DNA of 64,000 bases from a virus (Duplodnaviria > Caudoviricetes), in IMG/VR virus record IMGVR_UViG_2713896764_000001, positions 1 through 64,000 of that record; one strand, given 5' to 3'. The notes below the pieces were generated by a model. That model was not told where the DNA came from, made no database searches, and saw only the letters and a list, made by a program, of their open reading frames with translations. A program made the translations under genes and the position numbers. The first letter of the stretch is position 1. The number at the start of each line of letters is the position of its first letter. This document shows, piece after piece, positions 4,351-56,161 of the stretch.

Positions 4351-5109
4351 TTACAGATTCCATGATAATTGGAGCTTGTCGGCTGCCAATACTGTTGCCT
4401 CGGGGAAGTGCTTCATCGCTAGGTGACGAGGAATGGCCTCGTGTGTGTAGATGGCACTCCGCAGGGACAAGTCTTGGTTTGCCTCTCCGCGCATCTTGAT
4501 CTGTGCAATGACGAATTTTTGATATTCCTCTAGAACCGGACACTGGCAAAAGTTGGAAACCTTGAAGTAAGGCTCTTCTGATACCATTAGGCCAGTTCTC
4601 AGCTTACTCGCCAGTGCTTGCTTGAAGTTGTCAATCAGCTCGGCTTGGTATAGCTGTGCCGGAGTAGCCAGGTGCAATCGTCCTCGCCCTTCCGTATCCA
4701 TGATGATTGAGAAACAAAACAGATCGTAGGGTGCGCGTAGCTTGTCGGCCATCTGTCTTGCCTTCCACAGCGAGGTCACTGTCCGGCTAGACTGTTCCCA
4801 AATGGCTTTGCGCTTAATGCCTGTTCTGAATGGTGCGGATTTGTAATCCTCACGACCGCGCATCAACATCACTTGCGAGTAAGCCTTCATGTAGCACTCT
4901 GCAAAATACGCTGTAGCGTCGAGGGGATGTAGAAAGCGATAGTCATACCACTTACGAAAGAAAAGCTCACCATCGTCCTTACAGCGCGAAATCCCGACGA
5001 TTTTTGAAGTGATCTCGTCCTTGTCTCTCGCTGTTGTGTCGATGAGTGGTAAAAGTCGCTCGTTTTCCTCAAAAACGGCTTTTAAGTTTTTCAACTGATG
5101 CGGAAACAT
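4351..5109 (-). CDS. hypothetical protein heading the replication operon
   Basis: 252-aa ORF; 18-bp palindrome 4 bp upstream of the ATG. Confidence 0.75.
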   Translation of the reverse strand: MFPHQLKNLKAVFEENERLLPLIDTTARDKDEITSKIVGISRCKDDGELFFRKWYDYRFLHPLDATAYFAECYMKAYSQVMLMRGREDYKSAPFRTGIKRKAIWEQSSRTVTSLWKARQMADKLRAPYDLFCFSIIMDTEGRGRLHLATPAQLYQAELIDNFKQALASKLRTGLMVSEEPYFKVSNFCQCPVLEEYQKFVIAQIKMRGEANQDLSLRSAIYTHEAIPRHLAMKHFPEATVLAADKLQLSWNL

Positions 5110-5381: not shown

Positions 5382-5720
5382 ATGTGCCACCTGATATTGC
5401 TCCTTCCTATTTTAGCTCTACCATTATTCTGGCTGACCCCATTCTCGTTCGCTATACCGCTCTATTTCTTTATTGTTATCGTTTCCGCAGTCATCTACTG
5501 GCTTACGTATCGAGCGATGCACTTACCAATTGAAACAGGATCCGAAGCACTCCATCACCAAGTAGGTCAGGTAATCGGATATCAAAATGGCTTTTATCAG
5601 ATATCATTGAACAATGAATGTTGGAATGCCCTTTCAGATGAAGTGCTGCAACCTAGAGAACGGGTTGAGGTGAACTCTGTCCACGGTGTCACACTGAATG
5701 TCAAACGGATCTCAGGCTAA
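5382..5720 (+). CDS. NfeD-family membrane protein
   Basis: two N-terminal TM segments, then TG.E.L...GQV...G.Y.I.LNNECWNA.S...V.V.SV.G.TL.V OB-fold pattern. Confidence 0.8.
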   Translation: MCHLILLLPILALPLFWLTPFSFAIPLYFFIVIVSAVIYWLTYRAMHLPIETGSEALHHQVGQVIGYQNGFYQISLNNECWNALSDEVLQPRERVEVNSVHGVTLNVKRISG

Positions 5721-5777
5721 GCCCTTCAGGCAAGAGAATTGAGACAGTGTGCTTCCTAAAATCAGGAATCGCTAAAC

Positions 5778-6284
5778 ATGCCAAGACAATTTATCAAACA
5801 GCACTGCGGATGGTTACTAACGACTCTCATCCTAAGCGGCTGTGATGTATCCATCAATCACATGTATACATCAGTCGATAAAAGTCGCACCTATCCAACC
5901 AATGGTGAACAAATTTATTTCACTGGCCGGAATCAGTCAGGCAGCCAGATTATTTACCGAGGCGGTCATATGCATGCGCAGATGCATCTCACGGCATGTG
6001 CTGATTGCCATGGTATAAGGCGTGAAGGAGGTCAGCGCATGTATCCATTTTTTTGGCTGACAGCTCCTCCGCTAACAAGCGATGCCTTATTCGGCACGCA
6101 CGATGATGATCATGATGCTTATACCCTATCCAGCCTTAAAAGAGCTATCACAGCAGGTGTTGACCCATCCGGAGAGCAGTTGGATTCGACGATGCCCCGT
6201 TGGCAGATGAGTGAATCGGACTTAGAAGATTTGGTTGATTATCTTGCAGAAGGAACTTTGAAAACAGTAAAGCATGAGCAATAG
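5778..6284 (+). CDS. monoheme cytochrome c lipoprotein
   Basis: lipobox LSGC, CADCH heme motif, distal MPRW Met ligand. Confidence 0.85.
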   Translation: MPRQFIKQHCGWLLTTLILSGCDVSINHMYTSVDKSRTYPTNGEQIYFTGRNQSGSQIIYRGGHMHAQMHLTACADCHGIRREGGQRMYPFFWLTAPPLTSDALFGTHDDDHDAYTLSSLKRAITAGVDPSGEQLDSTMPRWQMSESDLEDLVDYLAEGTLKTVKHEQ

Positions 6285-6476
6285 AGGTTCAGCGTCTCGG
6301 TGGAAATTAGATATTTTTACCATTCTGCCATATATGAACCACATACCATGCGGAAAACCCACTAATATTGTAAGGGCTTAATCCGCATTTACAGACTTGG
6401 TAACACACAGCATCAGCCAAGGTTTTACCGAGACCAACCTGAAACACATCCATTTGCTGAAAAAAGGAGGCTTAGG

Positions 6477-6941
6477 ATGAGAACACACATCATGATCATC
6501 CCACTGGTGACGTTACTAAATTTAGCTGCCATCCATGATGTATCAGCTCAACAAGGCATGACTTGGCATGGGAGCGGTGGTTGGGGTCCCCACTCACCTT
6601 ACGGGATGATGTATAACAACCAGACTATGGAGGAAGCTAGCGGTGAAGTAGTGACCGTGGATAAAATCTCTATGATGCATCAGATGCAACAACAAGGGGT
6701 CCACCTGACAGTTAAAGCTGGTCAGGATACCCTCTCCGTTCATCTAGGTCCGGCTTGGTATCTTGAGAAACAGGATGTCAAAATCATGCCTGGAGACAAG
6801 GTGACTATTAAAGGATCCCGAATCACCTTTGACGATGAGCCAACGTTGATTGCCGCGGAAATTCGCAAGGGAGACCAAGTATTAATACTTCGGGATTCGG
6901 ACGGTATTCCTGTCTGGAGTGGTTGGCGACAACGACAGTAG
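6477..6941 (+). CDS. exported Met/His/Gly-rich OB-fold protein
   Basis: signal peptide (VSA-Q), GGAGG RBS, VHLGPAWY...GDKVTIKGS OB-fold pattern. Confidence 0.75.
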   Translation: MRTHIMIIPLVTLLNLAAIHDVSAQQGMTWHGSGGWGPHSPYGMMYNNQTMEEASGEVVTVDKISMMHQMQQQGVHLTVKAGQDTLSVHLGPAWYLEKQDVKIMPGDKVTIKGSRITFDDEPTLIAAEIRKGDQVLILRDSDGIPVWSGWRQRQ

Positions 6942-7458: not shown

Positions 7459-7570
7459 AATGGCATTTTTACTGAAGCTATTGTTTATAACGCCAAATTA
7501 TATGGCGCTTACAAAAAATAACAACATCCATAACAATCTTTCAACCATCTAATTTTAAAGGGCTTCCGTT

Positions 7571-7606
7571 AAAAAAGCACCCGCGAATTAGTTAGTTTCG
7601 CGGGTG
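7571..7606 (-). terminator. intrinsic terminator
   Basis: CACCCGCGAA/TTCGCGGGTG stem with A-run. Confidence 0.65.
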
Positions 7607-7795
7607 GAAGAATGTGACAAAATTTACGGAATCACTAGAATCAATTTCCCGATAGACGCACAATTTAAGCATAGCAGATATTTCCTTTCACGCAGGGCTT
7701 TCGCGATTGAAAATTGAAAAGATCAACCATAACAAATCATGGTGCAACCAACACAATATTTTATCGGTCTCATGAGGGATGAGTCCGGATGAAGC

Positions 7796-7974
7796 CTTTC
7801 CCCCTAAATTTATAAATAATCTTAAAAAGAAATATTATGTAAACGCGGTTTTATTCGAAGATGAACTATCTCCGGAGTTCATGATTTTTCACCAAAAGAA
7901 CTCCAATTCCGGAGTATCCAATAACCGCGTTTCCAATATATATTCCGTAGTATTTATTAATTAAGGGGTGAAAG
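7796..7974. repeat. dispersed foldback element, copy A
   Basis: inverted cores ATATTATGTAAACGCGGTTTT and AACCGCGTTTCCAATATATA; related to 39925-40126 and 53316-53532. Confidence 0.8.
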
Positions 7975-8043: not shown

Positions 8044-8068
8044 AAAAAGCCCCAAATATCGGGGCTTT
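8044..8068 (-). terminator. par operon terminator
   Basis: AAAGCCCC/GGGGCTTT stem with A-run after the par partner gene. Confidence 0.7.
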
Positions 8069-8098: not shown

Positions 8099-8446
8099 TT
8101 ACTTGTCTGTTGGTATAGCTTTGAATCGTTCATCGCTTCTGACAGCGTTCAGAGGGCTTTGCGTGACTTCTTTCAGTAGCACTTCTATCTGCTCGTCGGA
8201 CATTCTCGACAAAACCAATACTCCGGCTCTGAAAACATCACTTCTTGCGGCATTGAAGCGCCTTGGAACTAAGGCAAGCTCATCAACCAGGCTGTGATAA
8301 TCCGCCTCCATGCTGACCATTCTGCCTTTGATCGGCTCGGCCTTTGTCTCTGCCTGATCTTGCCCTGTCTGCTGAACTGACTCCTGAACCGAAGCCTCTT
8401 GGGTAAACCGGCGTCGGTCGCTCTTCACCAAACCTCCTAATCCCAT
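8099..8446 (-). CDS. type Ib partition partner (ParG-like, probable ribbon-helix-helix)
   Basis: small ORF directly after parA; MVSME...ARSDVFRAGVLVL strand-helix-helix pattern. Confidence 0.7.
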   Translation of the reverse strand: MGLGGLVKSDRRRFTQEASVQESVQQTGQDQAETKAEPIKGRMVSMEADYHSLVDELALVPRRFNAARSDVFRAGVLVLSRMSDEQIEVLLKEVTQSPLNAVRSDERFKAIPTDK

Positions 8447-9319: not shown

Positions 9320-9394
9320 TGGAGCAGGCAGCGGGACTCGAACCCGCGTCCTCAGCTTGGAAGGCTGAGATATTGGCCACTATACGATGCCTGC
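9320..9394 (-). tRNA. tRNA-Gly (anticodon TCC)
   Basis: GCAGGCA/TGCCTGC acceptor stem, CTCAGC-CTTCCAA-GCTGAG anticodon arm, GGTTCGAGTCC T-arm, encoded CCA. Confidence 0.95.
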
Positions 9395-16200: not shown

Positions 16201-17300
16201 TCACCAGCCTTGTTTGCCTTTGTCGCCAGTTGAGCGTTAATTGCGGCAATAGCCTCGCCTTTGTCAGTCAGCGCATCAGCCAGCTCTTTAAAGCTGTTCA
16301 GCTCTTCGCTTGCCCCGTTCAAAATCGCATCAAACTTCGCATCAACCTGTGACTTCAGGTAGTAGCGCGTGTCGTGGTTGTGCTCGGAAGGTGGCAGCGT
16401 GCTTGGGATGCCGGTGATGTCACTCCAAGACGGCTTGTTATGCTTGGAAAAGACGTGCTCACCATTCTCGAAAATCGCCCCTGTCGAGTGGAAGCCCGTT
16501 GTTAGGTCGAGGTCAACGGACACTTCAACGTCAAACTCAGTGTGCTCGGCTGGAACTTCGACGGCACTCTTGATGTTCCAAGCGTTGTGCGGGGAATATT
16601 CGCTATCCATGTAATAGCTAACTTCCGCATCCGCATCAATGAAGACCTCAATAGCTACGGGGCCGTAAGTCTTATCAGCCTTATTTGTCACAAGACGGAT
16701 GAAGCGAATTGTCCCGTTACCATTGTTGTAGCCATTTGAGGCAAGGATATTGATGTAAGGGCTTTTCCCGTAAGCCACACCAGCCTCAAAGCGAACATAC
16801 CCATGCTGGCTACTCTGCCCCTCGCAAATGGTGAAACGACCATTGCATCGCGAAGCACCCTCGTAAAGACGATACCATTTTCCGCCTACACACTGATGCT
16901 TGGAACTCAGCAAACCAACATAGCGACCATCATGGCTATGGCCTGACAAAGAAAATGCACTTGCGCGCTTACCCTCAAGCGTAAAAGCATCTGGGTTATC
17001 AAGGTTAAACAGAATCTCTTTGGAGTTTTGGTTTGCAATTACGCGAACCCCCTTGCCGCCCTTCATAGCAACAGAGGTATTTTCACCAGGGATGTTTAAT
17101 GTTCCCTCGTTCGCAGCAATGCTGGCGATGGACTTGATAGCCTGAGTTCGAGAGCCAAAAACGAAAACTTCACCCGAGTCGTCCTTTGAAAACACGACAC
17201 CATCACGGGCGTTAATGGCTAGTTCTCCCACTTCCAGATCTGCCGGAAGAGGAACCTTACCCGCCTCAAACGTTTTCTTTAGTATAATTTTGTTGCTCAT
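13251..17300 (-). CDS. long tail fibre protein
   Basis: about 1350 aa; GELAIN N-terminal anchor, GAGSGLDADLLDG, repeated VYSPNNKPT modules. Confidence 0.9.
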   Translation of the reverse strand: MSNKIILKKTFEAGKVPLPADLEVGELAINARDGVVFSKDDSGEVFVFGSRTQAIKSIASIAANEGTLNIPGENTSVAMKGGKGVRVIANQNSKEILFNLDNPDAFTLEGKRASAFSLSGHSHDGRYVGLLSSKHQCVGGKWYRLYEGASRCNGRFTICEGQSSQHGYVRFEAGVAYGKSPYINILASNGYNNGNGTIRFIRLVTNKADKTYGPVAIEVFIDADAEVSYYMDSEYSPHNAWNIKSAVEVPAEHTEFDVEVSVDLDLTTGFHSTGAIFENGEHVFSKHNKPSWSDITGIPSTLPPSEHNHDTRYYLKSQVDAKFDAILNGASEELNSFKELADALTDKGEAIAAINAQLATKANKAGDTFTGAMTFQAGISVAGKAKFAIGEGLELLSDDTYFGQHNDARVFRMIDTNGTGGSVDGGILFESYTPTDDVRVELLRIRNGEFKWKGATIWHANNDGAGSGLDADLLDGQQGSFYQNASNLNAGVVNAARLSGHYGISVNSAKNAEMLGSKAPEYFTNATNLLSGIVPAARLSGTYAIAISGNAATASKWAAKRTVSLTGDVSGSVQLDGSGDVSIATTVANDSHTHDGRYYTKSQVPTFDQVGLVSGGGFKATGKTDGGSTTADIDALPANGGVYHKLIQESGSNGSAQCKTGYHYIQQYVYGTTSNVTQIAIPYGTSAATGRLAYRTRYSGAWRNWAYVYSTEFKPTAQDVGAVSKSGDTIGGHLAVQISGQKPAHIFEKVNSSGLSVYRFDAANGLSFYHAPDSANGAHVVTISKSGFNVVTGQLKEAGQRVYSPNNKPTAQDVGALSNKGGEVAGDLRVTGTCSIATANPFAFQLGTGAFVGSNHQNRMTFYASTDKEDTKLGWLFRTRAEGVGKADILEINAAGGMNLKLGDLKERGARVYSPNNKPKPADIGALPVAGGTLTGNLKVQRVNPYLWLYDTDTTVGTGPHIKFSTANTQGVELIHKEHDAEVPGGSGYSLRLQRAGDNTQGLGAKLDVQGEIYELDGKRVYSEGHKPTPSEIGVYSKSESDGRFAKKIKFSFSHHYCSVVILLVPCYTSGDPIAHSYVSGEMSFTRDDGTSRNECLSLEVKTGYKGNSASLSRQGIDWNWRIVSVLHGGVKWLALANATNANGASNVQNAHVEFIGRAFVGTVTGYNKADQFKVIPYREDKDGVKTILNAEVNDSLTAFSTSTLRDELGSKFYSPNNKPTLDDLGLPLYTIETNLTVGTEWLDTGINLADLPSGSYMVQISGMASSATSLYGEIFTGVMSWFSEETNSLDVDEILLHKAGHASNGRTLFLRTARDQRAAKSSDGLSLQIRSTHALTASAYTFKFRRLI

Positions 17301-33233: not shown

Positions 33234-34028
33234 TTAACCTCGCCCAATTCGATATGAGCGAGTTGTGTATTTGCCCAGCACTCGAAAGGCTCTTGCGCCC
33301 ACGATTTCCTGAGCAGGTCGCCCTTGCTGATAAGTCAGCGAGGTTTCCCCTACACGCTCTGAAACAAGACCGCTGCGCCTCGCCAAGTCAATGGGATCAC
33401 CACCAAGCACATCGTCAGCCTCATAAATCACTGCAACGGCAATGTCTTCAAGGAAACGGGCTGGCAGATCCATGTATTCACCTGCGCTTAGCCTGGTTAG
33501 GTCAATGCCTTTGTCGAACGATGGAAAGTCGGCAAAACAACCTGAGCGCTCATACACAACCGCTGGATTAAATCGCATGGCGGAAATCCGGCGTGACGCC
33601 TCAATAATGGCTTTGCGCTTCTCACCTTGGCTTGCGCCAAGAAACTTGCTCACGTTCGGCACATCCAGCAGGTGAAGTTCTGCTTCGGCTACCGTAATCA
33701 GTGTCTCTTGAGGGACAAAAAGATCTGCACTGGCAATAATTGCATACCGGCGTTCCTGCTGAGCAACATCGCCATCATCGTTCTCCATCGTTAGGTGAAT
33801 GATGCGCAGCGCCTTACGCTGAAAGCCGTCGAGTCTATTTAGTTCGTCATCAATGACGATTTCCACAAACTCATCGTCGCTGTAGACATCAATCGGCAGT
33901 TCGTCGGTCAACAACATGCCGTGATGATCCTGAACGCGGTATGACGCAGTGATTTTCCCGTCAAGGTTTGGAGCATCAAACCGAATCGTTACACTGCTGC
34001 CTGCGATATGAGTTGCCAGTTCAGACAT
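33234..34028 (-). CDS. head-tail adaptor
   Basis: GLVSERVGETSLTY C-terminal motif; position after capsid. Confidence 0.7.
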   Translation of the reverse strand: MSELATHIAGSSVTIRFDAPNLDGKITASYRVQDHHGMLLTDELPIDVYSDDEFVEIVIDDELNRLDGFQRKALRIIHLTMENDDGDVAQQERRYAIIASADLFVPQETLITVAEAELHLLDVPNVSKFLGASQGEKRKAIIEASRRISAMRFNPAVVYERSGCFADFPSFDKGIDLTRLSAGEYMDLPARFLEDIAVAVIYEADDVLGGDPIDLARRSGLVSERVGETSLTYQQGRPAQEIVGARAFRVLGKYTTRSYRIGRG

Positions 34029-36375: not shown

Positions 36376-37917
36376 TTACTCGGTCTCTTGAGCATCAGTA
36401 GGTTCAGTCTCTCGAACCATTTGCGCTCGAGTATAAGTAAGCACTGACTTATTATCAATATCCATTTTAGAATTTTTAGGCGGAAAATCAGCTAATTCGG
36501 CAAAAATTTCAGCCTCTTTGTCCTTCGGCAGACGAGGGAATACTTTTTTCAGCACCATTGCCATTTGCTCACGACGAGCAGCATCAGGCGCTTCAAGGTT
36601 TTTCATCTGCTCTGCAACGGCAAATTCATCGGCTAGGCCACGAATATCAAAGCTCTCCGGATAGCTCACATAGTCCACCATTTGAGAGTCACCTGACTTC
36701 CCGTGCCAGCGCTCAACGATAGCCGCCAGACGATGCTCTGCCTGCTCCAATGTGCTTGCCTTGTTTACCAGCAGGGAGTTGACGCGCTGGAAATCAAAGG
36801 CTTTCGCTACGCCGGATGAGTTATCAATACCAACGGCGTTATCTTGCTTGGTTCGTTCTCCGGCCACACCGATAGAGTGATAGATCTCGTTAATGATCTT
36901 CGAGATAGTGTCGATAATGATTTGTGCCTGCTTAGGATCTGGTGACATGAAGAACGGCTTCGCCCCACCCTCACCGTTGAACGTGAATACCCGCTTGGTT
37001 CCCATATCCAAAACCTTTTGCAGATCATCATCACCTGGCAATAGCCCTTGGACCGGAATCGCAAGTTGCGAATAGGTTTGGTCTTGGATAATCGCGTCCA
37101 AGTTGGACAGGTAGTTCGCAACCGAGCGATCAAGATAAGCCACGTCATCAATCAGCCCCGTCGCTGCATACTTGTTTTCCGATGAGTGGAAGCAATCGAC
37201 TGGAAACACTGGAACAACGTTCAAATCGTGCGTCCCTGCACTCTCCAAGCCCAGTTTGACTTTCGCCCCTTTGTGCTTTTGTGGAAACTCGCGGAACAGA
37301 TACCAGCCCTGCTTTGTCCACAGACGATAACGTAGGAACGTTTTGCCGGTTGATTCGAATGGATCGGCATCATCACGACCGGTTTCTGCAATCAGACACC
37401 ATGACAGATCGCCATTCTCGTCGTAGGCAAAATCAAGCATCTGCATTGGCGTAACGATATAGGCGTAAACGCGGCTATCTGAGTTCTTCTCATCTGCCAG
37501 CGTTACAATGTCACTTGACTTGGTCGAGTCCACTACGACCCAAATACGACCGAATACAGACGATGAGATATCAACGGTTCGCATAAAATCGTCAATATCC
37601 AGCTTGTCGCGGGTCGCACACTCCCAAAAGCGCTTAACCTCTTCGCTGGCGTCCTCGGCACGAGTAACCGTTTCCTTGAAGATATACTTATGAACAAGGT
37701 TCACGACCTCTCGGGTGTGGTTGAACCGGTAGGCACGATCAATACGTTCCTTGTATTCCGCGTCGCCCTCTTTGTAGTAGCGGAAAATATTCTTCTTGAA
37801 CCACTCACGACCGCCTTTGTAGGTGGACTCCAAAAACTGCCAGTGCTCAAGCATCGCCTCATAAAGTGGATGGCGACGACTAACCAGCTCCATGATTTTC
37901 TTGTCTGAAATTTCCAT
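36376..37917 (-). CDS. portal protein
   Basis: 513 aa after TerL; SPP1-like portal motifs, SGVAKAFDF. Confidence 0.88.
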   Translation of the reverse strand: MEISDKKIMELVSRRHPLYEAMLEHWQFLESTYKGGREWFKKNIFRYYKEGDAEYKERIDRAYRFNHTREVVNLVHKYIFKETVTRAEDASEEVKRFWECATRDKLDIDDFMRTVDISSSVFGRIWVVVDSTKSSDIVTLADEKNSDSRVYAYIVTPMQMLDFAYDENGDLSWCLIAETGRDDADPFESTGKTFLRYRLWTKQGWYLFREFPQKHKGAKVKLGLESAGTHDLNVVPVFPVDCFHSSENKYAATGLIDDVAYLDRSVANYLSNLDAIIQDQTYSQLAIPVQGLLPGDDDLQKVLDMGTKRVFTFNGEGGAKPFFMSPDPKQAQIIIDTISKIINEIYHSIGVAGERTKQDNAVGIDNSSGVAKAFDFQRVNSLLVNKASTLEQAEHRLAAIVERWHGKSGDSQMVDYVSYPESFDIRGLADEFAVAEQMKNLEAPDAARREQMAMVLKKVFPRLPKDKEAEIFAELADFPPKNSKMDIDNKSVLTYTRAQMVRETEPTDAQETE

Positions 37918-39201: not shown

Positions 39202-39836
39202 TAGGTAACAGCCTCCGACTCAGCCTCCTCTCGCTCAAGCTCTTCCCGCTCTGACGCAATTTCCTCGGCAAGTTCTGCTTCCAGCTCATCCAGGTCAACA
39301 ATGTCTTCGGCATCGCCAGTTTGGGCCTTGCGAAGCTCAAGCACCTGTTCTTGAGTCAGCTCGGCGAACATCAGCTCAGGCAATTCGTCGTCGCGAACGT
39401 CTCTGTCATCCATGCGAAGTGCCTTGTGGGAAACCTCATAGCACTTGGCTAAGGCAGCCGACGCTCGTTGCAGTGCCTTAATTGATTCTTCGGCTGAACC
39501 TATGCCTCCGTGCGATCTTGCACCTTCGGCAACTTCCTTCATCACAAGCGCGCCAAGGTTGTAAGCCCACTTGTCGTATGACTCCTGACGAGAGGCGATC
39601 AAGTTTGCCCGTTCCACGGACTTGTCGATCATTTTCTCTTTCACAGCCTCTCTGACAGCATCCGCAGTGGCAGCGCTACCCTTCTCTACCCCACGAGCCT
39701 TAAATCGTCTTGAAAGCGTTTCTGGACGCATCCCCGACTTCTCTGACAGCGCCGCAAGCGTGTATTCGCCCGAAGCCCACATAACCTCAAGCTCAATCCA
39801 TTCCGACGGCGTTAAAATCCTTTTCTTCTCCACCAT
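39201..39836 (-). CDS. terS: terminase small subunit
   Basis: N-terminal HTH, directly upstream of terL; ATG at 39836 abuts an 18-bp palindrome. Confidence 0.75.
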   Translation of the reverse strand: MVEKKRILTPSEWIELEVMWASGEYTLAALSEKSGMRPETLSRRFKARGVEKGSAATADAVREAVKEKMIDKSVERANLIASRQESYDKWAYNLGALVMKEVAEGARSHGGIGSAEESIKALQRASAALAKCYEVSHKALRMDDRDVRDDELPELMFAELTQEQVLELRKAQTGDAEDIVDLDELEAELAEEIASEREELEREEAESEAVT

Positions 39837-39924
39837 AAGTAACCCATTACTTACCAAACGAGGCGATATTATCAGCAAGGCGCGGTATTGTTAAGATTAT
39901 GAGTAAGCCGCAGCTTATTATTTT

Positions 39925-40126
39925 TAATAATATAAATATTATGGAAGCGCGGTTTTTGAAGAGATTTATGTGAAAGGTAAGGTTCTAACGAACCTTACTT
40001 TCACGAAGAGTTTTCAATTCCGCAGGTAGTTTGAAGAGAAGTCGCGGAGTCTTAATCTTGATTGGAAGCTGGGTTCGCAAGAACCTTGCTTCCAATATAT
40101 ATAATATATTTTCTTAATATTATTAG
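39925..40126. repeat. dispersed foldback element, copy B
   Basis: ATATTATGGAAGCGCGGTTTT ... AACCTTGCTTCCAATATATA with internal hairpins. Confidence 0.8.
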
Positions 40127-40401
40127 GACATGCCTACTCGTGCGATCTGCTTGGCGAAAGCCCGCCCCAAAGTTGTCAGCAGCAGCGTCCGACGATTCTG
40201 ACCTCCCTCTGAGCGCTTGCGGAGTTCGCCTTTGGTCAGCAGCCGTTTCTCGATCAGTGCTCGCAGGCTGAACTGAAAACTTTCTTTTGACGTTTTGTAA
40301 GGTAGCGACTCAAGAACCGAATCCAGATCTGCAATGCCTCGCACCTCTTCGACAATGAGGATTGTATGGATAATCTGTTTTTGTTTCTTGGTGAGAATCA
40401 T
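40123..40401 (-). CDS. winged-helix DNA-binding protein
   Basis: SFQFSLRALIEKRLL...RRTLLLTTLG wHTH pattern. Confidence 0.75.
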   Translation of the reverse strand: MILTKKQKQIIHTILIVEEVRGIADLDSVLESLPYKTSKESFQFSLRALIEKRLLTKGELRKRSEGGQNRRTLLLTTLGRAFAKQIARVGMS

Positions 40402-52525: not shown

Positions 52526-53251
52526 CTACTTGGAGTTGTCTTCAGCCAACTCCTTAGCAATCCGCAGGTAGCCAAGTGTATCCGCGCAGGTTGGCTCGCT
52601 CACTTCGTGATAACGGAAGCAGTGTAATGTCGCGTAGGCATTCTTCCATAAGGCTTGGAACTTAACTTCATCCCCTGCTTTGGTCTTCCAGCCATTGCGT
52701 TTCCAGTTAGGCACCCAATGTCTAAAACCATTTTGCATGGCCGTTGATGAGGTGAAGATCATCGCCTGCTCCAGCTCACACTCGTTGAAAATCTTCATCG
52801 CGGCAATAATCGCGTATAGACCAGCCTGAATCTCGCCAGAAAAGGTGCCAGGCATTTTGAACTTGTAGTAAAGCTCTGCGCCGTTGTAGATGCAAAATGC
52901 CGTTGTCGTATTACCAACTGACGGCGTTACCACTTCCAAGGCTGCACAGACTGTCGATTTGTCGAACTCCGCAAGTCCTTTCACATGCTCAATCATCTTG
53001 TTCATGTCTGTGAACAGAGGGTGCTCGCTGTATCCGCTTCTGAGCGCTTTTGGTGGTAACTTGGTGCTGTGGTGGCTCTCTATGGCTTTAATCACTTCTA
53101 AATCGCGCAGGGAAGCGAATTTCGCCACGTCCGATATTAACTTTCCCCAATCCTCGCTGACTGGGTGGGTGGACGGAAAGGATTTCCGGATCAGATCGTC
53201 AATTCGCTTTACATAATCAGGCATTCCGGACTTATTCATCATAACCCTCAC
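52526..53251 (-). CDS. RNase HI-like protein, apparently catalytically inactive, with extra N-terminal domain
   Basis: GFRHWVPNWKRNGWKTKAGDEVKFQALW basic protrusion; acidic catalytic positions substituted. Confidence 0.8.
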   Translation of the reverse strand: MRVMMNKSGMPDYVKRIDDLIRKSFPSTHPVSEDWGKLISDVAKFASLRDLEVIKAIESHHSTKLPPKALRSGYSEHPLFTDMNKMIEHVKGLAEFDKSTVCAALEVVTPSVGNTTTAFCIYNGAELYYKFKMPGTFSGEIQAGLYAIIAAMKIFNECELEQAMIFTSSTAMQNGFRHWVPNWKRNGWKTKAGDEVKFQALWKNAYATLHCFRYHEVSEPTCADTLGYLRIAKELAEDNSK

Positions 53252-53315
53252 TTGTTGCTAGTGCTTAGTTAGATTTTGACTCCGCAGACAAGGCATCCAA
53301 GCAAATTGTCGATCA

Positions 53316-53532
53316 CCCCTTTTATATAAATTAAAAGGAATAAATATATTATTTATGGAAACGCGGTTTTTATTCAGTGTTAGGTAGTTCCGGATATTGA
53401 AATCTATCTCAGGAAACTAGGCTCTTGCAGAGCCTAGTTTCCTGAGATAACTCCGTAACTCCTTCACGATTACCTTCGGACAAAAAACCTAGCTTCCAAT
53501 ATATAAATATTCTTTTAATTATTTATATAGGG
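53316..53532. repeat. dispersed foldback element, copy C
   Basis: same inverted cores; perfect 21-bp internal inverted repeat 53405-53449. Confidence 0.85.
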
Positions 53533-53683
53533 AAGAACCTTGCGGATTACCCTGCCGCTCCCTCCAAATAGTAACCTAGCGCTTACTTAATTCAATAGGA
53601 AATCGTTCCGGACTTGCCTCTTCTCCAAAACGCTCTCAGACGATTCGGGACACTGTAGCTGTGGGTTGGCTTGGGTAAATACG

Positions 53684-53717
53684 AAAAAAGCGCCCCTGAG
53701 TGATTCTGGGCGCTTTT
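53684..53717. terminator. intrinsic terminator
   Basis: AAAAGCGCCC/GGGCGCTTTT. Confidence 0.75.
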
Positions 53718-53772
53718 CTGGGGGGGTGTAGTCTGTTTTTGTGCTCTTACGCTGCTTGCTTGAGAACGTCGT

Positions 53773-54180: not shown

Positions 54181-54558
54181 TTACTTATACACACAGAAAA
54201 AAATATATTCGCTATGCCCCTTGGTATCAGCCACCGCTTTTACACCCAAAGGTAATTCCCACTCATACCGAAAGCCGCGTATGTCCTCTTCTCGACGTTC
54301 ATTGAGAACTCGGTTGATCGTGCTGATCGCCAACGAAAGATCCTGTCCCCAAATAAGGCGCTGAATCAACTTGCCCTCTTCCGATTCCGTATTGCCATAC
54401 AGTCCGGCGCGATGCTGGGAAAACTCAACATTATATTTGCCATCGGTAAAAACGATATTCATGCGAGCGCCAAACCACGCTTTGCTTCTTTCCGGCGCAA
54501 CTATTCCCCATTGAATACAACTCATACCACGAACTTCCTTAATATTAAGCACAAGCAA
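54181..54558 (-). CDS. hypothetical protein
   Basis: 125-aa ORF in the operon. Confidence 0.65.
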   Translation of the reverse strand: MLVLNIKEVRGMSCIQWGIVAPERSKAWFGARMNIVFTDGKYNVEFSQHRAGLYGNTESEEGKLIQRLIWGQDLSLAISTINRVLNERREEDIRGFRYEWELPLGVKAVADTKGHSEYIFFCVYK

Positions 54559-55252
54559 ATGATGGCATTTCTACAAAGGCATTCAATTCCTCTGTAGTAG
54601 ACCGAATCGGCACTGCAGTAATGTGATACAAAAGCTCATGTTCGACTGTCAGCGCATTCCCGCAGTAGACGATGATCTCGCGTAATGATTTGGTCGGAGA
54701 CAACACTTCAACGGTTTTCAATCGCTGGATGGTTGCACAGTAAACCGCGCATCTGTCGATATCGTTAATAGTGAGTCGCAGTTTATCCAGCCCAGCCTGT
54801 CCATATTTCTCAAATAGCGTTTCCACGACAGCAAGTGCCATAGAACCAGCCCCTACGCACGGCTCAAGAACAGAGAATCCGTCCGGATAGTTGTCCAATT
54901 TGAGATCATGAAACTGCATTTGCGCTATTGCCTTGCTGACAGAGTAAGGCGTGTAGAACGCACCAAGGTTTTTGCTATGGCCTGCCAAGTTCAGCTCACA
55001 CATAACCCGCCCCAGCAAATCAATACCTGGATAACTTTCAACGAACCCGAAAAACAGCTTTTCTGCCTCAACTGCCTTTGTCACTTCGTGATCTCCCCAA
55101 CTCAAGTGGTCACGGCAATTGTCACCCCCGATGAAACCGTTGAGCATGGCCTTTACCCAATCCTCAAAAGCATTGGACTGTGACAGCCGGATATCAAACA
55201 TCAAACGTGAAATCTTTTCCGCTACTGACTGAGCCTGAATAACCGAATACAT
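54545..55252 (-). CDS. short N6-adenine methyltransferase-like protein lacking motif IV
   Basis: GAFYTPYSV, LEPCVGAGSM, DID, GNAL; no NPPY/F. Confidence 0.75.
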   Translation of the reverse strand: MYSVIQAQSVAEKISRLMFDIRLSQSNAFEDWVKAMLNGFIGGDNCRDHLSWGDHEVTKAVEAEKLFFGFVESYPGIDLLGRVMCELNLAGHSKNLGAFYTPYSVSKAIAQMQFHDLKLDNYPDGFSVLEPCVGAGSMALAVVETLFEKYGQAGLDKLRLTINDIDRCAVYCATIQRLKTVEVLSPTKSLREIIVYCGNALTVEHELLYHITAVPIRSTTEELNAFVEMPSFACA

Positions 55253-55315
55253 ATTTTCTCCCCCTAACCAACACACTATTTCCGGAGCGCCACCAAGGGC
55301 GCTCGCTAACTTCTA

Positions 55316-56161
55316 TCAACCAATGAATTTTGCCGACAGTGGGTTTTCTCGATTTAGAGTGATGGATTTGCCGTCCTTGGTTGCCATTCCAATAGCAGGC
55401 AGTAGCGCCATCATCTGTCCAGCCTGAGAGCCAGCAGTTCCCACCGTGTATGGCTTCTCTGGATTGCTCATTAGGTAAGTCCGTAAGTCACCCGAAGTTG
55501 CGCTACCGTTTTTCACCAGGTATTCCAAGCAAAGACGGGTGTAGATGGAAAGCTCAGCCTCATCATTCGCCCAAGCCAGAATGTTCTTCGCCTTGTCCTT
55601 CACTTTTTTCGGCAGTGCATTGAGCATCAGAGCAAATTCTTCTGTGGCGATACCCACAGCCTCAAAGGCAGCGTCAGATTTGTCGGCAACGTATTCCTCT
55701 GCCGTCTTACCGCCAGTCGCTACACGCTTGCGCTTTGGCTTTGGCTTTGGCTTTGCTTCACCTTCTACAAACTCATCATCTTGTTTAGACGCAACAGCCT
55801 CTACATCTTGTTGATGTTGAGCCTCTTTAGCTGATTGGGCTGCCAACTCACCGTCAGATAGCTTGCCGATATCCTTAGAACTTTCATTCAGCTCATCCAG
55901 CATTTCATCAAGGTATGAAAGCGAGTCATCTTCATTATCTGCAGCCGCAACTGGCTCTTCGATCTTTTGCTCTTCGACCTCCGGCATATCCAATTCGCCA
56001 AGTAGCATGTCGAGATCATCAATGTCGCAGGCATTCTTGTCGGCAGATGTCTTTTCAAGCGCGTCTAGATCATCAGCGGAAATGCTCAGGTTGTTGAGAT
56101 CTGCCATTAGCGCGTCCAGTTCGTCTAAGTCAGAAATTGGGTTGCTTGTTACTTGTGTCAT
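55316..56161 (-). CDS. highly acidic protein with C-terminal winged helix
   Basis: D/E-rich N-terminal half, KPKPKPKRKR linker. Confidence 0.75.
   Translation of the reverse strand: MTQVTSNPISDLDELDALMADLNNLSISADDLDALEKTSADKNACDIDDLDMLLGELDMPEVEEQKIEEPVAAADNEDDSLSYLDEMLDELNESSKDIGKLSDGELAAQSAKEAQHQQDVEAVASKQDDEFVEGEAKPKPKPKRKRVATGGKTAEEYVADKSDAAFEAVGIATEEFALMLNALPKKVKDKAKNILAWANDEAELSIYTRLCLEYLVKNGSATSGDLRTYLMSNPEKPYTVGTAGSQAGQMMALLPAIGMATKDGKSITLNRENPLSAKFIG

Follow-up and report, generated by a model that had tools for sequence, protein, structure and literature searches.

Promoter-early stem-loops (PeSLs) are composite terminator/promoter cassettes of T4-type phages, for which both promoter and terminator activity have been demonstrated (Arbiol et al. 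2010, PMC2839356; Comeau et al. 2014, PMC4122927). They carry the full sigma70 −35/−10 consensus, occur at about 50 copies per genome and flank ORFans in hyperplastic regions (PMC2839356, PMC4122927). Here, we describe three foldbacks in a phage genome related to Salmonella phage SSU5, for which PeSL cassettes are the closest published analogue. We propose, with a probability of roughly 0.45, that the foldbacks are this lineage's cis-acting punctuation between super-operons, comparable to the T4-type cassettes. Literature searches found no published description of the boundary palindromes of SSU5/pHCM2.

The window, that is, the whole 64-kb stretch of DNA that was analysed, is the first part of a 93,668-bp IMG/VR entry classed as a provirus. 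Its terminase large subunit gene product, TerL, is 72–75% identical to those of Salmonella phage SSU5, Escherichia phage Cyrano and many Klebsiella, Cronobacter and Enterobacter plasmids, while megablast and blastn searches of phage and plasmid collections, with the region and with elements B and C as queries, gave no DNA-level match, and no similar DNA was found among 72,556 plasmids; together, these results identify the genome as a distant member of the SSU5/pHCM2 phage-plasmid group. Searches of viral and metagenome contigs for closer relatives, starting from TerS, from an alignment of TerS sequences and from the RNase H-like protein, found none above ~45% identity; one TerS protein (P0002) is 77% identical to that of the window. 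The contig on which the exact window TerS protein (P0001) is found is 716,952 bp long, and for this reason the element may not be a free 100-kb plasmid but part of a large host replicon, through integration or through assembly.

Three foldbacks between gene blocks

A sequence-only reading of this DNA had reported three dispersed foldback elements with conserved inverted cores. The three foldbacks are real and measure 180–230 bp. The genes run mostly on the − strand, and all three foldbacks are intergenic, between − strand genes. The components are as follows, with a strand given for those that have one.

5382–5720, + strand: NfeD-like gene
5778–6284, + strand: cytochrome c-like gene
6477–6941, + strand: gene without a match
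7796–7974: foldback A, between the end of the late (structural/lysis) block and the + strand accessory genes, which are followed by the helicase-primase block
7800–7852, + strand: half-element A_L, with a CCCCC block (7800–7804), an AT-rich tract, TATTAT, the core GTAAACGCGGTT (7839–7850) and TTTT
7853–7922: interior of A, 70 nt, holding two small hairpins back to back, both with a short T-run after them on their own strand
7923–7968, − strand: half-element A_R, with the core GGAAACGCGGTT (7934–7923), TATATT, an AT-rich tract and a CCCC block (7968–7965)
39905–40126: foldback B, abutting the stop of gene 40123–40401 (− strand), with a sigma70-like promoter, an operator and terS downstream of it
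39905–39956, + strand: half-element B_L, with a distal GC block AAGCCGCAGCTT (39905–39916), an AT-rich tract containing TATAAATA, TATTAT, the core GGAAGCGCGGTT (39943–39954) and TTTTT
39970–40004: interior hairpin of B, GTGAAAGGTAAGGTTC-TAAC-GAACCTTACTTTCAC
40061–40096: core-to-core hairpin of B, in which an extra motif copy, GGAAGCTGGGTT (from 40064, + strand), pairs with the right core over a 4-nt gap, NN being mismatched
40082–40126, − strand: half-element B_R, with the core GGAAGCAAGGTT (40093–40082), TATATATT and an AT-rich tract
53310–53540: foldback C, between the terminator 53684–53718, with an operator-like site at 53572–53589, and the RNase H-like gene 52526–53251 (− strand)
53316–53370, + strand: half-element C_L, with a CCCC block (53316–53319), an AT-rich tract containing TTAAAAGGAA, TATTTAT, the core GGAAACGCGGTT (53357–53368) and TTTTT
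53405–53449: centre of C, a perfect 21-bp inverted repeat with a 3-nt loop and a motif copy, GGAAACTAGGCT, in each arm
53486–53535, − strand: half-element C_R, with the core GGAAGCTAGGTT (53497–53486), TTTTTT, TATATT, an AT-rich tract containing TTAAAAGAA and a distal CTTCCC block

The left core, TTATGKAARCGCGGTTTT, is found on the + strand at 7835–7852, 39939–39956 and 53353–53370 with 0 mismatches, where 0.26 occurrences are expected by chance at up to 3 mismatches. The right core, AACCNNGYTTCCAATATATA, is found at 7923–7942, 40082–40101 and 53486–53505 (chance expectation 0.07, 3 mismatches allowed). Both agree with the sequence-only reading, as do the AT-rich outer arms of A and C with their CCCC(C)T...AGGGG ends and the core-to-core interiors of 70, 125 and 115 nt in A, B and C, which are unrelated in sequence and contain hairpins. 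That reading also placed the three elements in the same orientation, which holds only in the sense that the + strand cores, pointing against the genes and near-identical in all three copies, are the best conserved. Read 5′–3′, the two cores are one directional motif, TAT(A/T)(A/T)T-GGAARC-NN-GGTT, on opposite strands, and the members of each pair face inward. Extra GGAARCNNGG copies lie inside two of the interiors, a third copy in B (40064, + strand) and a third and fourth in C (53412, + strand; 53442, − strand), and form tight core-to-core hairpins. No further foldback or core copy is present elsewhere in the whole 93,668-bp record, and scans of viral contigs and genome contigs with the exact left-core pattern returned only scattered single chance matches.

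Folded whole as RNA, A, B and C reach −60.7, −52.6 and −82.7 kcal/mol, with z-scores of −6.4, −6.4 and −8.9 against 200 shuffles, of which 0/200 fold as well. Such very stable folds would be expected if the elements act as RNA, either as long double-stranded sites of RNase III type that process and stabilize polycistronic transcripts or as short convergent transcripts that begin at the two promoter-like halves and do not extend beyond the element. RNase III-type double-stranded sites occur between T7 early genes. Such a function would also fit the better folding of the gene-sense (−) strand in A (−60.7 versus −49.2 kcal/mol for the + strand) and in C (−82.7 versus −79.2 kcal/mol), in both of which that strand has more G-U pairs. 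Against it, the + strand of B folds better (−72.5 versus −58.9 kcal/mol), and does so as local hairpins rather than as the whole foldback, the interiors are unrelated between copies, and the core-to-core pairs of B and C are mismatched at NN. Rfam searches add nothing in its favour: in gathering mode, the sole match is a tRNA at 9323–9394 and the foldbacks have none, and in E-value mode, only generic hairpin (miRNA precursor) matches far below threshold appear. A known RNA family is thus rejected as an identity, in line with the earlier failure to recognize an annotated family, and the suggestion of structured non-coding RNAs gains no support from the interiors or from the pairing of the cores.

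The surroundings of foldback A hold three further observations. The three genes at 5382–6941, between the foldback and the helicase block, run against the general gene direction and are probably accessory cargo. Directly beside the foldback, ~330 bp (7460–7795) are without a convincing gene, and a sigma70-like site was reported there by a scan at 7614–7641 (+ strand). The tRNA gene (− strand; Rfam RF00005, 62 bits) is close to where the late block ends; SSU5 has a tRNA-Asn.

A half-element shared with SSU5-type relatives

Alignment of the six halves of the window with three from a relative, G004, defines a half-element of ~65 nt: CACCCCT, 35–45 nt of AT-rich DNA with TTAAAAG(A)AA, TATAT(T), the core and a T-run, after which similarity stops. 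The core is GC-rich and 11–12 nt long (GGAARC-NN-GGTT here), and the T-run is usual, not universal; in A, B and C, it lies on the interior side of each core and not after a stem. The AT-rich tract beside each core is among the most AT-rich spots of the genome. Each foldback consists of two inward-facing copies of this half-element. Folded alone, the halves have no significant structure (z +2.6 to −1.9), and the structure of the foldbacks therefore comes from pairing of half with half and from the separate small interior hairpins. Two complete SSU5-type palindromes side by side were considered and rejected as a description: folding of the halves alone argues weakly for it in B_L, which can fold locally (−13 kcal/mol, z −1.9), and in C_R, a weak local palindrome (−11.5 kcal/mol, z −1.4), and does not do so in A.

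In SSU5 (NC_018843) and five complete or near-complete IMG/VR relatives, 3–9 half-elements are present per genome, with cores that are lineage-specific and uniform within each genome (ACAGAGCTAGGT, GGGAGCAAGGTC, GGGAGCTAGGCT, GGGAGCACGGCT and AGGAGCCAGGCT in the five IMG/VR relatives). A sequence-only model, R1, was built from the six half-elements of the window and three from G004 and searched against 680 kb. Half-elements in G001, G002, G003 and G005 are picked up with E values of 5e-6 to 0.03, and no new one appears in the window, where A_L, itself a training sequence, is matched at 7793–7894 with an E value of 1.2e-15; the SSU5 copies are not reached at E ≤ 1, and SSU5 is linked through motif and synteny. 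All six half-elements here are intergenic, as are ~38 of the 39 listed in the six relatives, the exception being one inside a predicted ORF (G003, 13867, + strand). Relatives mostly have outward-facing pairs around an AT-rich centre, and single, partner-less half-elements are found at terS in G004, at 16443 in G002 and at 37044 and 90108 in G003. One 310-bp inward-facing foldback in G004 (75170–75480), with the ends CCCCTATAT...ATATAGGGG, resembles those of the window. Arrangements are thus inward or outward, with spacings of 30 to 200 bp. Since a half may be turned round or stand on its own, what is conserved is the half-element, not the palindrome. The proposal of a functional family is strengthened by homologous half-elements at syntenic positions in relatives, where a lack of homologues had been named as the outcome that would speak against it; what does not stand is the whole foldback as the conserved unit. 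For the replication or priming origins and the recombination sites on the list of functions given in the sequence-only reading, the evidence points neither way, and that list did not include transcription punctuation at operon borders.

SSU5 itself has three boundary sites, each at the start of a gene block.

Site i, across the record ends: before terS
Site ii, ~33450–33520: before SSU5_038/DnaB
Site iii, ~78280–78360: before the RNase H block

The three foldbacks are intergenic at the corresponding module borders. Foldback B precedes a terS-like gene, TerL and portal, matching site i. Near foldback A, the protein of 4351–5109 has 39% identity (E = 2e-48) to SSU5_038, the first gene after site ii, and the + strand accessory genes (NfeD-like, cytochrome c-like) separate A from this homologue. 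Foldback C precedes an RNase H-like gene matching SSU5_090, as does site iii, and follows an SSU5_087 homologue (55316–56161) and a methylase (54545–55276). The halves also share the SSU5-type plan of an AT-rich tract, a TATA-type hexamer, a GGRAGC-N(1–2)-GG core and a T-run. With the SSU5-type boundary palindrome, the window therefore has in common the three module borders and the half-element plan. The form differs: the SSU5-type element is one palindrome of 55–125 bp, made of outward-facing halves with an AT-rich centre between them and with a T-run after it, whereas here, no such single palindrome is seen, and the halves face inward around 70–125 nt of unrelated, hairpin-rich DNA that is not AT-rich, with the core GGAARCGCGGTT and with extra copies in B and C. 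The mirrored (inward) arrangement, the changed core and the single partner-less half-elements are what is new here.

Terminal inverted repeats with variable interiors are also what would be expected of non-autonomous mobile (MITE-like) elements or recombination cassettes inserted at three places, as the sequence-only reading had suggested among other possibilities. In relatives, moreover, the palindrome of site ii is the exact junction between variable or unrelated upstream DNA and conserved downstream DNA, and this mosaic junction makes homologous exchange at the repeats plausible. Yet the positions are syntenic with those of SSU5, whose TerL is only ~73% identical, no target-site duplications are visible, there are only three copies in the 93.7-kb record, the 72,556 plasmids hold no similar DNA, and pattern scans gave only single chance matches. 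Shared synteny at three sites marks these sites as old and fixed and rules out recent insertion of mobile elements; the identification as MITEs is contradicted on each of these counts, and we consider a mobile origin extremely improbable.

The arms of the SSU5-type palindromes fold well (z −5.6 to −9.3 in SSU5), and in SSU5, too, the backward-facing halves are the best conserved. Nearly all of 47 distinct sequences from the spot upstream of terS have the inverted repeat ..CCTGCTTCCGTATATA..(AT-rich, 30–110 nt)..TATACGGAAGCAGG.., and at site ii, on the helicase side, GGTCTTT(T) follows the 3′ arm immediately in ~49 of 54 distinct relatives. Among 53 distinct palindromes of relatives at sites i and ii, C-G > U-G > U-A replacements occur at two positions of the arms, so that pairing of the arms is supported. 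For an RNA function, these compensatory changes and an excess of G-U on the gene-sense strand in SSU5-clade relatives count in favour: 17 wobble positions stand against one C-A (19 haplotypes from 53 instances at two SSU5-clade sites). The 17:1 preference drops to ~7:4 when independent events and other sites and lineages, where three to four C-A cases were found, are counted by hand. Strand specificity is therefore only suggestive, since the wobbles are all C-to-T and maybe few in number, and C-A cases occur elsewhere. With the asymmetry weakened in this way, and with sequence conservation that goes beyond the need of pairing, we regard action as RNA as quite unlikely.

Several features of the relatives lie beside these sites. 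The linear GenBank record of SSU5 starts and ends inside the AT-rich centre of the terS-proximal palindrome (L105:1–20; L107:3260–3299), which might mean that the DNA truly ends there or that the assembly broke at a hairpin. A short GC hairpin is located ~20–40 nt before the terS start, right before the ribosome-binding site (L025–L104; SSU5 L105:95–125); it is kept across SSU5-type relatives with compensated arms (GAGCGC/GCGCTC, GGCGC/GCGCC, GGTGC/GCACC) and a T-rich stretch after it, and is absent from the window phage. In the relative L030, the boundary palindrome lies ~1 kb further upstream (L030:1203–1272), a position checked in L030 alone, and in L030 and its close relatives L028 and L029, the spacer directly before terS (~2150–2350) is different DNA without a palindrome.

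Candidate punctuation between super-operons

In our preferred reading, a boundary cassette would stand at the borders of large co-directional gene blocks in SSU5/pHCM2-type phage-plasmids. The inverted pair of half-elements would form a strong hairpin in any read-through RNA, and this hairpin would stop or insulate read-through between neighbouring super-operons, possibly with help from RNA processing, or from RNA polymerase or a phage protein bound at the promoter-like TATATT-GGAAGC part. The gene-facing half in some relatives might also start transcription. Most relatives have outward-facing halves with a T-run after the gene-facing arm, in the manner of an intrinsic terminator, while this phage and one site of G004 have inward-facing halves around a short hairpin-rich spacer.

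Placement is consistent with such a role. In most cases in relatives, the backward-facing core lies 15–56 nt after the stop of the upstream gene, the gene-facing core lies 30–150 nt before the next start, and a T-run closes the majority of half-elements in every lineage. Between foldback B and terS lies an ordinary sigma70-like promoter whose −10 is extended (TTAACA-17-TGnTAATAT, 39894–39866, − strand), together with a perfect 18-bp operator, TAAGTAACCCATTACTTA (39836–39853), which overlaps the probable terS start and is a neighbour of the foldback, not part of it; foldback B is thereby at the position expected for a terminator or insulator. Because this promoter precedes it and the operator overlaps it, the terS start is probably the ATG at ~39833 and not the TTG at 39878 chosen by the ORF finder; the PHROG match, too, begins only at residue 16.

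The operator belongs to a wider set of sites. The 18-bp palindrome TAAGTMA-N4-TKACTTA, with ≤3 mismatches, occurs at ~41 sites in the 93.7-kb record, mostly at gene borders (examples at 39836–39853, 13185, 20238, 36434, 43772, 52492, 54170 and 60974). Related TAAGTA..TACTTA sites number 2–18 per genome in six relatives (14 in SSU5, 18 in G002, 2 in G004 and 2 in G005), and TAAGTnACTTA is present in the centres of 2/3 of the SSU5 boundary palindromes. The TAAGTMA-N4-TKACTTA palindromes look like a genome-wide operator set.

As terminators, the foldbacks are not of the textbook kind. Intrinsic terminators, including bidirectional ones, share with the palindromes of relatives a GC-rich stem base followed by a T-run, seen at 2/3 sites, and a location between operons. 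They differ in that the stems here are 25–80 bp long with AT-rich parts, are conserved in sequence from copy to copy and, in the window, have no U-tract after the long stem; the whole foldbacks have an AT-rich stem base and large loops. A terminator scan over the foldbacks reports one small internal site only, the − strand hairpin with its T-run at 7915–7900 inside A. Canonical terminators are already present 100–150 nt upstream of A (8044–8068, on the late-block side next to gene 8099–8446, − strand) and of C (53684–53718).

The TATATT-type hexamer followed by GGAA/GGGA resembles a −10 element with a GGGA discriminator of the kind known for sigma70 region 1.2, a resemblance and no more, which would suit the convergent transcripts of the RNA alternative as well as the promoter-like part of the proposed cassette. 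Promoter scans found no −35 element and no 9-of-12 site on the gene-facing halves. Neither Sigma70_r2 (PF04542) nor T7-type RNA polymerase (PF00940) is matched in the record, the latter being a weak negative, as the control was also without any match. With no −35 element and no phage sigma factor or T7-type RNA polymerase found, promoter activity is proposed as a possibility only. A promoter-then-attenuator arrangement like lambda PR′-tR′ was rejected: a terminator lies within 150 nt downstream of 7/39 half-elements versus 9% of random positions, which is no clear enrichment.

In PeSLs, we find the nearest parallel to this combination of parts. Common to both are repeated intergenic cassettes of ~100 bp at gene borders, an AT-rich tract, overlapping promoter-like and hairpin parts (the strong hairpin of the foldbacks being known from folding) and coincidence with junctions of conserved and variable DNA, seen here in relatives (PMC2839356, PMC4122927). 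The foldbacks differ in having a −10-like hexamer only, in place of the −35 and −10 consensus, and a lineage-dependent GC core. Instead of the tens of copies of T4-type myoviruses, this SSU5-like phage-plasmid of siphovirus type has three sites (3–9 half-elements in relatives), which occupy fixed syntenic super-operon borders.

Other identities were examined and set aside. The integron attC site (R″ RYYYAAC left, R′ GTTRRRY right, 57–141 nt) has the reverse polarity to the foldbacks, which read ..GGTT on the left and AACC.. on the right on either strand. A cos or pac site would be expected once, by terS, and each genome has three similar copies, of which two are remote from terS. By eye, the core consensus of XerCD/dif, sigma54, Tus-Ter and IHF sites is absent. 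The T4-late-type promoter motif TATAAATA is exact in G001, G003, G005 and B_L and is not general; we know of no gp55-like factor in SSU5-type phage-plasmids, and the motif is kept as a lead only.

Possible recognition by a factor and its meaning

In the cores, it is the sequence and not the pairing that is conserved; they are mismatched at NN in B and C, and cores also occur in partner-less halves. Together, this suggests that a sequence-specific factor recognizes them. The half-elements might then be DNA docking sites for a protein encoded by the element, acting on DNA and not on transcription: lytic replication origins, partition sites dispersed as they are in phage-plasmid N15, or polar barriers. 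Inverted initiator boxes beside easily melted AT-rich DNA are known from herpesvirus oriS/oriL, and promoter-linked origins from T4 and T7. Docking would account for a core conserved as sequence around a free NN spacer, for cores that are lineage-specific yet uniform per genome, as expected from co-evolution with a protein, for single half-elements without a hairpin partner and for the tolerance of both orientations and of spacings from 30 to 200 bp. It also suits the 35–45 nt of AT-rich DNA at each core and the position of the sites next to the helicase/primase, RNase H and terminase blocks. The N15 centromere repeats and herpesvirus origins are likewise few, dispersed inverted-repeat sites in regulatory regions with a function at the DNA level; the resemblance is architectural only, with no matching binding protein or sequence motif here.

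Docking leaves the tight placement after stops and before starts unexplained, and the T-runs as well, and the analysis yielded no candidate binding protein. The plasmid replicon of SSU5 lies elsewhere (the RepA-type gene SSU5_069 with large flanking non-coding regions). GC skew and AT-richness give no origin signal: AT-rich tracts are present, and cumulative GC skew has no inflection at the sites, although this is weak evidence against origins, as the skew simply follows gene strand. Overall, we hold docking to be doubtful, if credible. A related view, which we rate as rather unlikely, is that the half-element is the site of a dedicated SSU5-family factor and that the three sites are functional DNA landmarks, not plain terminators. 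These could be origins of lytic replication, or factor-dependent start/stop switches dividing the 100-kb genome into three domains under separate control, and the inward form of this lineage and the outward form of SSU5 could then be two solutions from the same part.

Phage-plasmids of the SSU5/pHCM2/pMT1 type are common in Enterobacterales, and the present record shows that they have more distant hosts too. To our knowledge, their transcription programme and lytic origin are essentially unstudied. Should the foldbacks, as punctuation between super-operons, prove to be terminators only, their description would be a useful annotation and no surprise. The recognition of the half-element as the conserved unit narrows the possible mechanisms and defines fragments for reporter, binding and origin assays, and a short signal kept at the same three borders, despite TerL identity of only ~73%, offers a way into the question of how 100-kb genomes of this type are split into control units.
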